Shown one piece after another: positions 12,001-15,000 of a DNA stretch of 44,756 nt. A program made the position numbers. The first letter of the stretch is position 1. Each line of letters begins with the position of its first letter. This stretch comes from Chloroflexota bacterium (GTDB lineage: Bacteria > Chloroflexota > Dehalococcoidia > UBA2979): positions 1-44,756 of the forward strand of contig JAQCIU010000026.1 in the NCBI GenBank assembly GCA_027593235.1, written 5' to 3'.

Positions 12001-15000
12001 GACCTCGGCGAGCTGATTCTCTTCGTCGCGCAGCAGCCGCCGCACGTCACCCTCAACGAGGTGCTCATCACCCCGACCTACAACCGCTTCGCCGCTCGCT
12101 AGCGCGCCAGCCAACCCGAGCCACCCGACCAGATCTGAGGAGTTCCCCACATGGCCTTGAGAGTCGTCAACGGCGGGCGTCCGCTCGCCGACACCAGCAT
12201 CTTCACCAACGCCGGCATCGAGCTGGTCGAACAGCAGGTCGGCGCGACCACCTCGAAAGAGGACTACATCGAGCTGCTGCGCGACGCCGACGGCGCGATG
12301 ATCAGCACCCTTCCGCTCACCGATGTCGACGTCCTCGAGGCCTGCTCGAAGCTGAAGGTGGTCAGCCGCGCCGGCGTCGGCGTCGACTCAATCGATCTGC
12401 CCGCCGCGACCCGCCTCGGCATCCTCGCCTGCAACACCCCCGCCGTGAACACCACCGAGGTCGCCGACCACGCGATGGCCCAGCTCCTCGCGCTCACGCG
12501 CATGATCCGCGAGTTCGACACCGCCGTGAAAGCCGGCCGCTGGAGCAGCGACACCGCCGCGGTCCGCGGCATGGCCGTCGGCCTCAAGCGGATCGCCGGA
12601 AGCACGGTCGGGATCATCGGCTTCGGAAACATCGGTCGCGCCTTCGCCACGCGCGTGAAGGGCTTCGGCCCGTTCCGCGTGATCGCCTACGACCCCTACA
12701 TCCAACAGACCTCGGCTGACCTCTTCGGAGTCGAGCTGGTCTCGCTGGAGGAACTGCTCAACGAATCTGACTTCGTCACCGTGCACACCCCATCCACGGC
12801 GGAGACGCACCACATCATCGGGACCGACGCGCTCAAGCGGATGAAGCCCTCGGCGATCCTGATCAACTGTGCCCGCGGCCCGATCGTCGATCCCGATGCC
12901 CTGCACATCGCCCTCACCACCGGCGAGATCGCCGGTGCGGCTCTCGATGTCACCGAGCAGGAGCCAATCTCCGCCGAGGACCCGCTGCTCGGCCTCGACA
13001 ACTTGATCATCACCCCCCACATCGCCGCCGGATCGCCGGTCACCGCCATCGAGGGCGGCAAGCGGCAGGCGGAGAACGTGCTGATGGCGCTGACCGGCAC
13101 CGCCCCGCACGGCCTCGCAAACCCCGAGGTCATCAAAACCATCGCCGTCATGCGTGCGACCAATCCCGGCCGTTGGGAAGGCATCCCAGACTTCTCGACC
13201 GCGCTCATGCTGTAGGCATTGCCGGCCCTCGAACACTGCCCGTCAGGGGCCGAACGGCAGGTCCGGAGCACCGACCACAGGTGTAGTCTGACCGCAACGA
13301 GGAGGCACAAATGAGCGAGCAAGAGCGATTCATTGCTGACCCGGCCTACCGGGCCTTCGTGAGCTACATCGACAAGTCGCGCGAGTTCTACGGCGCGCAG
13401 GGATACGAGCGGCCATACCGCTGGGCGCGGAACGACGAGTCGCCGTTCACCCCGCTCACCAAGCCGCTCTCCGAGAGCCGAATCGGCCTCGTCACCACCG
13501 CCGTCAACCTCGACCTCCCGGACGACACCGATACCGAAAAGCTCCCCATCGCCTCGACGTTCGCGGCGCCCTCCGACCCCCCGCCGGAACGGCTGTTCAC
13601 GCAGAACCGCTCATGGGACAAGGAAGCAACCCACACCAACGACGTGGATTCGTTCTTCCCGATCCACCGCATGCAAGAGCTGGTCACGCAGGGCAAGGTC
13701 GGCAGCCTCTCGCCCCGCTACTACGGCATCCCGACCGAATACAGCCAGCGCCGCACTAACGAGGTGGACGCGCCGCAGCTCCTGGCGCTCATGCGCGAAG
13801 ACGATGTCGACGTGGCCATGCTGGTGCCGCTCTGACCGGTCTGCCACCAGACCGTGAGTCTGGCCGCACGACACCTCGAGGCCAACGGCATCCCGACCGT
13901 GATCTGCGGTTCCGGTCGCGACATCGTCGAGCAAGCCGCGGTCCCGCGCTTCCTCTTCACCGACTTCCCGCTCGGTAACCCGATCGGCAAGCCGTACGAC
14001 GCCGAGATGCAGCGCGCGATCACCTCGATGGGTCTCGACCTGCTCGAGTCGGCGCGCTTCCCGCGCACCACGGTGCAGACGCCGTTCTCCTGGGGTGACG
14101 ACTCCTGGCGCCCCGGCTTCATGCGCGTCGATGAGTCGAATCGCGAACTGCTCCGCCGCGCCGGCGAAATCCGCAAGAAGCAGCAGGCGCGCCGCAAGAC
14201 CGAAGGCCGCGTCCGCCCCGAGTAGCCACGCACACCTCGAGGGCCGCCGAGCCCTCGAGGTGCCGCACCGGTCGCGCCGCTACGCCGTCCGTCGCTTCAG
14301 CGTGAGCGCGCCAAACACGAGGGCGAGCGCGACGCAGCCCATCCCCACCCCGATGTCGATCCAGAACCGCCCGTCGATGTCGTTCGCCGCCGCCTTCGCC
14401 AGCGCCTCGTAGGCGTACGTCAGCGGAAGGAAGTTCGAGGCGGCCTCCAGCGGTGCGGCCATGTGATCCCGCGGTGCGAACAGGCCCACCACGAAGAATT
14501 GCGGCATCAGCACGGCGGGCATGAACTGCACCGCCTGGAACTCGCTGGTCGCGAAGGCGCTGACCAGCAGCCCCAGCGCCATGCCGAGGATCGCGTTCGC
14601 CACGGCCAGCAGGATGACCAGCCAAACTGGCCCGGCGGTCTCGAGCCCGAGTGCGCCGAATGCGACGAGTGCGGTCACCAGCGCCTGGATGCTCGCCACG
14701 ACGGCGAACGCCAGGCCGTACCCCAGCAACAGGTCCAGCTTCGCCAGCGGCATCGACATCAGACGCTCCAGCGTCCCGTTCGTCCGTTCCCGCAGCATCG
14801 CGATCGAGGTGATGATGAACATCAGGATCAGCGGGAACAGCCCCACCAGCGGCGGCCCGATCCGTTGGAACACTTGTGGCTGCGTGTCGAAGACGTACTT
14901 CAGCAACGCCAGCAGCACGACTGGCACCAGCAGCACCAGCGCCACCGTGCGGCGATCGCGCCGAATCTGCTGCAGCACCCGCCGCGCCGTCGCAAGCACG

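Follow-up and report, generated by a model that had tools for sequence, protein, structure and literature searches.

A PrdB-like selenoprotein in a Dehalococcoidia contig: a probable stand-alone selenocysteine/cysteine reductase of a clade apparently separate from D-proline reductase

The systems closest to the protein described here are PrdB, known from Clostridium/Acetoanaerobium sticklandii, Clostridioides difficile and Peptoclostridium acidaminophilum, and GrdB, GrdF and GrdH (PF07355, TIGR01917/01918), which are proteins of about 430 residues in the same superfamily; a UxxC motif is found in all of them. In authentic PrdB the U151C exchange leaves the protein inactive, according to the accessible part of PMC11229817. 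In marine surveys "Proline reductase PrdB, UxxC" ranks with the most abundant selenoprotein families, with 42 sequences from the Sargasso data (third most abundant family) and 235 Sec and 110 Cys sequences from 38 GOS samples (PMC1088965, PMC2398784, both in the portions available). Within those portions, D-proline reductase function is assigned to the family and PrdA goes unmentioned. A search of the literature outside subscription journals and supplements found no description of a PrdB-like clade that does without PrdA.

The window analysed is the whole stretch of 44,756 nucleotides of contig JAQCIU010000026.1, and the gene under study occupies 13311-14225 on its plus strand. It starts with ATG at 13311, 5 nt downstream of a ribosome-binding site read from the sequence (GAGGAGG, 13299..13305, plus strand), ends with TAG at 14223-14225, and comprises 304 codons with a single in-frame TGA at 13833-13835 (plus strand). 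This TGA would encode Sec175 of a U-P-V-C-H-Q motif, an assignment drawn from the alignment of TGA in related loci and of U151 in authentic PrdB. Cys178 (TGC, 13842..13844, plus strand), which is invariant in an alignment of 18 sequences, is likely the resolving cysteine of the UxxC pair. Coordinates and motif match exactly the survey's finding of a 304-residue U-P-V-C protein. Under translation table 11 the same frame is split into two ORFs (13311-13835 and 13854-14225), and public gene calls stop at the TGA to give a 174-aa fragment (P0014); GC3 is 0.89 in each half, a coding-type value. The TGA recurs in contigs from two other public runs, one of which (X3) is identical to the window here, the other (X4) coming from a diverged strain with no listed difference at 13833-13835. 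Between the stop codon and a convergent ABC-2 permease gene sits a perfect 12-bp inverted repeat with a 6-nt loop, read from the sequence (CACCTCGAGGGC / GCCCTCGAGGTG, 14233..14262, no strand assigned), which appears terminator-like and has no T run. Scanning 10500-14500 for promoters and terminators revealed neither a sigma-70-like site nor, 3' of the selenoprotein gene, a T-run terminator; an Rfam search of 13000-14400 returned chance-level rows only, and no public RNA run was listed as containing the stretch.

Use of the TGA codon was followed in relatives. Among the best 80 related loci from other genomes, which come from several phyla at 54-86% identity and conserve both halves of the protein around the TGA, the codon aligned to U175 was TGA in 77 and TGC in three (L027, L028 and L078). 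A scan of 201 genomes of the class matched 72 at E<=1e-20, yielding 96 match rows (counted from the listed rows), 95 with an internal TGA and one without, in line with the earlier observation of TGA in the relatives. Cysteine at position 175 was found in full-length database proteins and in two plasmid-borne genes, all reading CPVC.

A SECIS-like hairpin (13847..13863, plus strand) with stem CCAGAC/GUCUGG (13847-13852 with 13858-13863) and loop CGUGA begins 11 nt 3' of the TGA; an 11-nt spacing between UGA and SECIS is the rule in E. coli fdhF. Pairing is retained in 96.2% of cells across 75 distinct Sec loci, with nine double-sided changes, a result that none of 500 shuffles reached. The folding energy is -7.4 kcal/mol in the window versus -3.6 to 0 in five Cys-form genes, the hairpin being weakened or lost in all five. 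An alternative SECIS taken from the minimum-free-energy fold (13838-13843 with 13848-13853) was 90% paired, with 17-18 sequences unpaired at each of two stem pairs, and was set aside. The genome itself encodes selA (544 bits), selB (300 bits) and selD (359 bits), all above cut-offs and the last also containing a TGA, together with a tRNA-SeC (tca) called by ARAGORN. Selenocysteine would thus be inserted at UGA175 by the genome's own SelA, SelB, SelD and tRNA-Sec, directed by the hairpin 11 nt beyond the codon. Recoding of UGA175, and with it the status of the gene as a genuine selenoprotein, is well supported by these sequence comparisons. Sequencing depth shows a spike at 13829-13865, across the TGA and the hairpin, and the near-invariant SECIS sequence apparently breaks metagenome assemblies at this position; the same near-invariance makes it a practical marker for finding Sec forms.

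Scores against curated models were low throughout, as the survey had reported. TIGR04483 (PrdB) gave 93.5 bits where the cut-off is 300 (E 1.3e-26, profile positions 19-232 of 238), GrdB-type models gave 15.8-25 bits (TIGR01918 15.8 against 65.45, TIGR01917 18 against 602), and the sole Pfam match was GRDB (PF07355) at 11.1 bits, E 0.24, against a cut-off of 22. None of 18 relatives tested on TIGR04483 exceeded 300 bits, the highest reaching 162.6, and some clade relatives exceed the PF07355 cut-off (e.g. P0128, 26.5 bits). BLASTP against P. acidaminophilum PrdB gave E 5e-27 at 31% identity and aligned U175-P-V-C-H with U151-G-T-C-H. Homology over the full length places the window protein in the PrdB/GrdB superfamily.

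The protein had been called an orphan, and that description does not hold. Relatives numbered 5444 at E<=0.001 among 8000 candidates scored, fell into 1578 clusters at 50% identity, and turned up in at least 571 of the species genomes scanned, with seven or more phyla represented. Names already given to full-length Cys forms are "glycine reductase", "PrdB" and [quoted passage not shown], and PrdB UxxC already stands in survey catalogues (PMC1088965 and PMC2398784, as far as available). A database search with a natural Cys-form relative (P0004) matched only "glycine reductase family" clusters. A quick tree grouped the window protein with Sec, Cys and fused forms in one clade of 46 rows (SH-aLRT 99), separate from PrdB and from the B subunit adjoining PF09338; Cys forms, which are common, interleave in it with the Sec ones in at least three places. 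By alignment and tree, this is a large and well-separated clade whose members have either Sec (UPVC) or Cys (CPVC). About 70 positions are invariant across the 18-sequence alignment, including, beyond UxxC, the polar motifs YSQRxT, GSxRD and FxDxPLGxPxGxP. Outside Stickland fermenters, the clade occurs in, among others, Bradyrhizobium, Roseomonas, Acidimicrobiia and marine MAGs.

The reading that we favour, and consider probable, is that the gene encodes a genuine selenoprotein of a PrdA/GrdA-independent clade within the PrdB/GrdB superfamily, acting as a stand-alone Sec/Cys two-electron reductase. A catalytic cycle can be proposed by homology with PrdB, in which the selenolate of U175 would attack a small substrate at an electrophilic centre, Cys178 would resolve the adduct to leave a Se-S bond, and this bond would be reduced again, presumably by a cellular dithiol or flavoprotein system. 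An AF2 model of the window protein (pLDDT 82, pTM 0.85) has a strand at 168-172, U175, and a helix at 176-191, so that U175 is predicted to lie at the N-terminus of a helix that follows a beta-strand, within an alpha/beta fold of Rossmann-like type. Foldseek matched no PDB entry at E<=0.001, a VIA-align wide search gave generic Rossmann-like folds only (LacI/periplasmic-binding type best at Z 9.7, SDRs at Z about 8), and the family profile, searched against PDB sequences, found no chain at E<=1, hence no solved relative; the active-site geometry therefore rests on the predicted model.

The gene lies 95 nt downstream, on the same strand, of a gene for a D-isomer 2-hydroxyacid dehydrogenase (12151..13215, plus strand; PF02826 at 207 bits, PF00389) that matches PGDH and glyoxylate-reductase models under their cut-offs, and the two genes are probably co-transcribed. 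Before these comes a short-chain dehydrogenase/reductase (SDR) ORF (11137..12102, plus strand), whose domain starts at residue 81, so that its true start is probably 3' of 11137; a MarR-family regulator (10772..11242, minus strand) is divergent from this row of three genes. The flanking genes listed by the survey were found again. The emphasis it had placed on the D-2-hydroxyacid dehydrogenase held in part: the neighbour is real, and of 80 loci only L014 and L044, which are the nearest relatives, share the adjacency. With the link present in just two of 80 loci, the role of the family cannot be defined by it, and the dehydrogenase is a lineage-specific neighbour.

Across the 80 loci the immediate neighbours change at nearly every one. 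Neighbourhoods were clustered from 1125 ORFs of these loci and the window using crude ORF calling, and two of the top clusters, being antisense ORFs of the target gene, were dropped. The recurrent families, out of 81 sources, were acyl-CoA dehydrogenase (17), SDR (10), enoyl-CoA hydratase (9), CoA-transferase III (7) and AMP-binding (5). CoA-related genes were not enriched near the selenoprotein gene (up to 2 kb away their density was 4.6 per 100 kb, further out 5.4-7.5), and because the recurrent families are not concentrated there they were not counted as functional support. Redox and detoxification genes, namely nitroreductase, flavin reductase, luciferase-like monooxygenase, OsmC and DinB/mycothiol transferase, are frequent among the flanking genes.

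This last observation also fits a thiol/selenol-disulfide oxidoreductase of general function, serving as antioxidant or redox buffer in the manner of the Trx-, Prx- and DsbA-like selenoproteins. Disulfide exchange with proteins or low-molecular-weight thiols would then be all that the UxxC pair does, and no dedicated small-molecule substrate would be involved. The predicted position of UxxC at a helix N-terminus, the interchange of Sec and Cys forms, and the scattered, mostly stand-alone occurrence of the gene with no fixed partner agree with such a role, as does the grouping of PrdB with thiol-dependent redox selenoproteins in Table 3 of PMC1088965 (the part of that source available). We nevertheless regard it as rather unlikely, since the invariant positions, polar motifs among them, are spread along the protein and resemble a specific ligand pocket, the fold is unlike thioredoxin, and fusions to acid-activating enzymes would not be expected of a generic disulfide reductase.

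Those fusions were found among 16 longer relatives, ten joined to AMP-binding acyl-CoA synthetases, four to APH/fructosamine-kinase-type kinases and two to family III CoA-transferases; CPVCHQT is retained in all three fusions aligned, one per fusion type. Their recurrence hints at activated carboxylic acids as substrates. They fall, in the quick tree, in an all-Cys sister subclade of nine rows, and their substrate may differ from that of the subclade to which the window protein belongs. For the stand-alone reductase, our guess at a substrate would be a carboxylic acid that is activated, either as CoA thioester or as phosphate, and undergoes cleavage at its alpha carbon; in the lineage of the window, the co-oriented SDR and D-2-hydroxyacid dehydrogenase may supply it. 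Taken further, and only tentatively, the clade could represent an enzyme of a new kind, a Sec/Cys reductase made of one subunit and compatible with oxygen. It would carry out PrdB-type reductive C-X cleavage beside a carbonyl with no pyruvoyl group, whose place as electron sink would be taken by a CoA thioester (or phosphate ester) of the substrate.

The AMP-binding and CoA-transferase fusions (ten and two of the 16 longer relatives) could also be taken to mean that Sec or Cys is an acyl acceptor and not a reductant, receiving a seleno- or thioester from an adenylating enzyme or CoA-transferase and passing it on as a carrier or transferase, and acyl-thioester chemistry does occur in the glycine reductase system (PMC13188914, in the part available). 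We judge this improbable: the invariant second Cys three residues on is in keeping with a redox pair, the corresponding residues of PrdB serve reductive cleavage (PMC11229817, same portion as above), the kinase fusions sit badly with acyl transfer, and the window gene itself is unfused, with no acyl-activating enzyme or CoA-transferase adjoining it.

Whether a partner subunit accompanies the protein bears on an ordinary PrdB, or GrdB-type protein B, whose PrdA/GrdE partner is encoded elsewhere or was left unassembled. PrdA is a pyruvoyl proprotein whose gene normally shares an operon with that of PrdB. TIGR04483 is the top curated model, homology spans the full length with Sec aligned to Sec, and several sources label relatives "D-proline reductase (dithiol) PrdB". 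Neither PF09338 (PrdA/GrdE) nor PF07355 nor PF04723 (GrdA) was found in the genome from which the window comes, which is 89.66% complete, the PF04723 search having been run without a positive control; for this genome alone, a PrdA gene could lie on the missing sequence. The 13 class genomes that have an orthologue at E<=1e-70 gave no PF09338 match, the identical search having matched 24 of 201 class genomes; nor did five further orthologue-bearing genomes (three titled as chromosomes) or any of 53 same-strand flanking genes. The survey had seen no PrdA-like gene among the neighbours, an observation upheld by the flanking genes and extended by the genome-wide search. Besides these searches, the 93.5 bits against an equivalog cut-off of 300, the split of the clade from PrdB at a support of 99, the replacement of the PrdB motif MGGGGD by PTEYSQR(R/K)T, and the abundance of Cys forms when PrdB U151C is inactive all stand against an ordinary PrdB, which is very improbable and close to refuted. 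Since its TIGR04483 score is below cut-off and neither PF09338 nor GrdA was found, the window protein is, to judge from sequence, not a subunit of D-proline reductase, and the best reading is that the clade would function independently of both GrdA and the pyruvoyl subunit (PrdA/GrdE).

That the TGA is a true stop, leaving either a disrupted gene or a pair of small ones (13311-13835 and 13854-14225) as the table 11 ORFs and the public fragment P0014 would have it, is already refuted for practical purposes by the in-frame TGA kept in 77 of 80 loci with both halves conserved, by the uninterrupted reading in Cys forms, and by a conserved SECIS with compensatory changes alongside complete Sec machinery.

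The gene is therefore misannotated twice over, being cut at the TGA to 174 aa in public calls while read-through relatives carry the names of D-proline or glycine reductase, names that imply subunits not found in the clade genomes searched. If the bolder reading above, of an enzyme of a new kind, is true and the "PrdB" of ocean surveys is this clade, that protein would mark an unrecognised step in organic-acid or amino-acid catabolism. The role of the clade can be tested now, through its independence from PrdA, the culturable Cys forms (Bradyrhizobium, Roseomonas, Haematobacter) and the repeated fusions to acid-activating enzymes.

Compared with PrdB of the three organisms named at the outset, the window protein shares the aligned U-x-x-C-H and the scaffold motifs LVTT, SFFP, PR..G, GIPT, PR and P.G..G.P, is longer by about 44 N-terminal and 45 C-terminal residues, and has PTEYSQR(R/K)T in place of the PrdB motif MGGGGD and GSxRDIVE in place of SALPAISI. 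To GrdB, GrdF and GrdH it is related weakly, matching their C-terminal half at 15.8-25 bits, and the N-terminal half of GrdB is absent from it. In the proposed fluoroacetate reductase FarB/FarE of Synergistota, the GrdB-like FarB retains a partner of GrdE type, FarE, and supplies the A and C proteins of glycine reductase, whereas the window protein has neither such a partner nor those proteins; the system offers a precedent for selenolate attack on the alpha carbon of alpha-substituted acetates (PMC10838667, in the part available). Nearest are the RefSeq Cys forms of Bradyrhizobium, Roseomonas and Haematobacter, named [quoted passage not shown] or "glycine reductase", which the quick tree puts in the same clade. 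These are of equal length, 42-54% identical, and have the same N-terminal extension and CPVCHQT, with Cys (TGC) in place of Sec and without the SECIS hairpin; SelO and Trk transport genes adjoin one, and a class III aminotransferase and cobalamin genes another. Three marine MAG loci (L039, L040 and L051) carry the clade of the window protein, and the Sargasso and GOS "PrdB" sequences probably belong to it as well, in which case one of the most abundant selenoproteins of the surface ocean would, on the tentative reading of a new kind of enzyme, have been misassigned for twenty years.

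The gene at 13311-14225 (+) was read as a single 304-codon frame with a lone in-frame TGA at 13833-13835, and this translation upheld the survey's finding of a 304-residue protein carrying U-P-V-C. The TGA encodes residue 175 (U175) in the motif L-U-P-V-C-H-Q-T. Under translation table 11, the frame is divided into two ORFs (13311-13835 and 13854-14225), each with a GC3 of 0.89, which is coding-like for a window of 68% G+C. A GAGGAGG box (+) is located 5 nt upstream of the ATG at 13311, a perfect 12-bp inverted repeat (14233-14262) is located 3' of the TAG stop, and the database record of the product consists solely of a 174-residue fragment (P0014).

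Four independent lines of sequence evidence (TGA conservation, Cys homologues, a SECIS element and Sec machinery) agree that the TGA is a selenocysteine codon and the gene a real selenoprotein. Relatives were scanned using one genome per species, which yielded at least 571 stretches encoding a relative. The best 80 loci (54-86% identity), from Chloroflexota, Actinomycetota, Myxococcota, Thermodesulfobacteriota, Spirochaetota, Binatota and Acidobacteriota, were compared at the codon aligned to U175, which was TGA in 77 and TGC in three. Within the window's class, 72 of 201 genomes contained a match at E ≤ 1e-20, and TGA was present inside 95 of the 96 match rows, consistent with the earlier claim that relatives carry TGA at the match. 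Full-length proteins with CPVC in place of UPVC were common in the protein collection.

The SECIS element (stem CCAGAC/GUCUGG, loop CGUGA; 13847-13852 paired with 13858-13863, +) starts 11 nt past the TGA. Across 75 distinct Sec-form sequences, 96.2% of stem cells were paired, and at two pairs both partners had been replaced (8 sequences with U-A for C-G, 1 with U-A for A-U), a level of covariation reached by 0 of 500 shuffles. Synonymous positions within the element are nearly frozen in Sec forms, and the hairpin was weakened or gone in 5 of 5 Cys-form genes (-3.6 to 0 kcal/mol, versus -7.4 in the window). A single-sequence MFE hairpin overlapping the element on its upstream side was rejected, being less conserved than the 13847-13863 stem. 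The window's own genome encodes selA (544 bits), selB (300 bits), selD (359 bits) and tRNA-SeC. The selD gene (G000:C16:112734-113672, locus L012), which scores over its cut-off, contains one in-frame TGA itself, and the selenophosphate synthetase is therefore probably a selenoprotein also.

The TGA was kept in contigs of two other public metagenome runs (X3 and X4). Summed Logan contig depth over exactly 13829-13865 rose from ~13 to 810 in X3 and from ~7 to 76 in X4, and many Logan contigs of both runs terminate in this interval. A near-identical UGA-SECIS stretch seems to be common to many different organisms in those samples, where it seems to form an assembly-breaking repeat.

To judge from alignment, this protein and authentic PrdB are homologous across nearly the whole PrdB length, the TIGR04483 match spanning profile positions 19-232 of 238. 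The below-cut-off scores noted earlier were reproduced: 93.5 bits against 300 for TIGR04483, 15.8-25 bits for GrdB-type models and, in Pfam, GRDB as the sole match (11.1 bits against 22). None of 18 relatives tested reached the TIGR04483 cut-off. Identity to the protein annotated as prdB in Peptoclostridium acidaminophilum was 31%, with U151-G-T-C-H of PrdB aligned to U175-P-V-C-H. In contrast to PrdB, the window's protein is longer by ~44 residues N-terminally and ~45 C-terminally, and its clade has PTEYSQR(R/K)T at the site of MGGGGD and further invariant motifs of its own (GSxRDIVE and FxDxPLGxPxGxP). In an AlphaFold2 model (18-sequence alignment; pLDDT 82.1, pTM 0.85), U175 is predicted to lie between strand 168-172 and helix 176-191 of an alternating strand-helix core; a redox-active CxxC usually sits between a strand and a helix in this way. 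Sequence comparison found no relative with a solved structure, and fold searches with the model returned only generic Rossmann-like folds.

In a quick maximum-likelihood tree built from 57 rows, whose long outgroup branches are uncertain, the window's protein grouped with other Sec, Cys and fused forms in one clade of 46 rows on a long branch (SH-aLRT 99), separate from PrdB and from a B subunit that a class genome encodes beside PF09338. Cys forms were nested within Sec forms at three or more places. The label 'orphan' had to be dropped, as 5444 of 8000 candidates scored were relatives at E ≤ 0.001 and the family is already catalogued. Clustering at 50% identity gave 1578 clusters at E ≤ 0.001 and 85 at E ≤ 1e-30; many of these stop at query residue 174 or begin at 177-183, a pattern typical of Sec forms truncated in gene calling.

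No match to PF09338 (PrdA/GrdE, the pyruvoyl partner subunit), PF07355 (GRDB) or PF04723 (GrdA) was detected in the window's own genome, which is 89.66% complete; the earlier remark on a missing PrdA-like gene had covered the neighbours scanned. As a positive control, the PF09338 search gave matches, all over cut-off, in 24 of the 201 class genomes. PF09338 was found in 0 of 13 class genomes bearing an orthologue (E ≤ 1e-70, identity 48% or more) and in none of 5 other genomes with an orthologue, of which three are titled chromosome assemblies; 51 of the 72 class genomes matched at E ≤ 1e-20 likewise had no PF09338 match. Of the 53 flanking genes that share its strand and lie no more than 200 nt away across the 80 loci, none was PrdA, GrdE, GrdA or PrdC-like. 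By the gene content of its own genome, of the orthologue-bearing genomes and of the flanks, the window's protein is not a proline or glycine reductase subunit. Several genomes of one class family (f23; G060:C1:93437-97664, G103:C1:1912153-1914344, G138, G155 and G188 are examples) carry 2-5 distant PrdB/GrdB-like genes each (28-35% identity to the window's protein), all with TGA and some in tandem; no PF09338 match was found in those genomes, and these genes appear to be further partner-less paralogue groups.

'Proline reductase PrdB' (UxxC) is listed with the most abundant selenoprotein families of marine samples in both the Sargasso Sea survey (42 sequences; PMC1088965) and the GOS survey (235 Sec and 110 Cys; PMC2398784). 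The D-proline reductase label is retained in later surveys and reviews (PMC1794560, PMC5029168, PMC9312934, PMC13188914), and Cys forms are named 'glycine/sarcosine/betaine reductase selenoprotein B family protein' in RefSeq. Full-text literature searches turned up no paper separating a PrdA-independent clade or assigning it a function. Since marine MAGs (loci L039, L040 and L051) carry the window's clade, the marine 'PrdB' of these surveys is likely this PrdA-less clade. The window's gene adds a new member to a family already known and catalogued, and neither the 'orphan' label nor the link to a 2-hydroxyacid dehydrogenase generalises. The interest sits in that family, which is probably mis-named.

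All neighbours named by the survey were confirmed, and a MarR gene lies among them: a nitroreductase (9008-9631), a two-domain rhodanese (9672-10511, +; 3 kb upstream), MarR (10772-11242, -), an SDR (11137-12102), the D-2-hydroxyacid dehydrogenase (12151-13215) and ABC-2 permease and ATPase genes convergent with the selenoprotein gene. Adjacency to the dehydrogenase stands, but a general link does not, as the window shares it with just its two closest relatives (L014, 86%; L044, 77%); judging by these three loci, a 2-oxo/2-hydroxy acid may be provided or consumed by the upstream SDR and dehydrogenase in this lineage. Across the 80 loci, direct neighbours are unlike in nearly every locus and flanking genes often divergent or convergent; the surroundings say very little on function. 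Acyl-CoA-related families occur within 8 kb in the 81 sources (acyl-CoA dehydrogenase 17, enoyl-CoA hydratase 9, CoA-transferase III 7, AMP-binding 5), and were not counted as evidence because they grow no denser near the gene (4.6 per 100 kb at up to 2 kb, versus 5.4-7.5 further out). Flavin or redox enzymes as direct neighbours (luciferase-like monooxygenase 3, flavin reductase 3, and nitroreductase, old yellow enzyme and FAD-linked oxidase 1 each) include no fixed partner.

The rhodanese shows weak likeness both to 3-mercaptopyruvate sulfurtransferase (94.8 bits against 250) and to ExtH, a rhodanese from a selenite/tellurite reduction operon (70 against 200), and it may take part in handling sulfur or selenium. 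The ORF at 3741-4943 (+) combines a luciferase-like monooxygenase with a C-terminal TfoX_C domain, an unusual pairing; in L022, L092 and L093 the PrdB-like gene is immediately preceded by a luciferase-like monooxygenase. Downstream are a carboxymuconolactone decarboxylase (AhpD-like) family gene (17721-18299, +) without internal stop, such proteins often being selenoproteins elsewhere, and a PAS-GGDEF-EAL signalling protein gene (18444-20744, +). On Roseomonas haemaphysalidis plasmid p546-2 (L096, 6968-9353), a Cys form is convergent with an annotated protein adenylyltransferase SelO gene 4 nt away; this one case may be chance.

Sixteen longer relatives (P0274-P0289) were returned. In 10, an AMP-binding acyl-CoA synthetase is N-terminal to the PrdB-like domain (~810 aa); C-terminal partners are an APH/fructosamine-kinase-type (MTR-kinase-like) kinase in 4 (~655 aa) and a family III CoA-transferase in 2. 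One aligned member of each type (P0275, P0276 and P0288) kept the N-terminal extension and CPVCHQT at 40-46% identity, and in the quick tree these fell within an all-Cys sister subclade with plasmid-borne Roseomonas and Haematobacter forms. By domain content, the PrdB-like domain is repeatedly joined to enzymes activating carboxylic acids or hydroxyl groups, the sole positive hint to a substrate. A Ser/Thr protein kinase domain was seen in one match (P0144).

PrdB is described as acting by selenolate attack beside an electron sink, with a Cys resolving the selenoether to Se-S (PMC11229817). By homology, the U175 selenolate would attack the carbon adjoining an electron sink and nearby Cys178 would resolve the selenoether to an Se-S bond, which would make the protein a two-electron reductase using the U175/C178 pair. 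Without a pyruvoyl partner, activation would have to come from the substrate itself, for which the fusions hint at a CoA thioester or phosphate ester. The main rival, plain disulfide exchange by the window's protein, draws on the Cys forms, which are frequent in this clade whereas PrdB U151C is inactive (PMC11229817); this contrast points to either chemistry easier than proline ring cleavage or such exchange. The proposed fluoroacetate reductase FarB/FarE shows the superfamily to be able to shift to other alpha-substituted acetates; FarB, however, retains a GrdE-type partner (PMC10838667).
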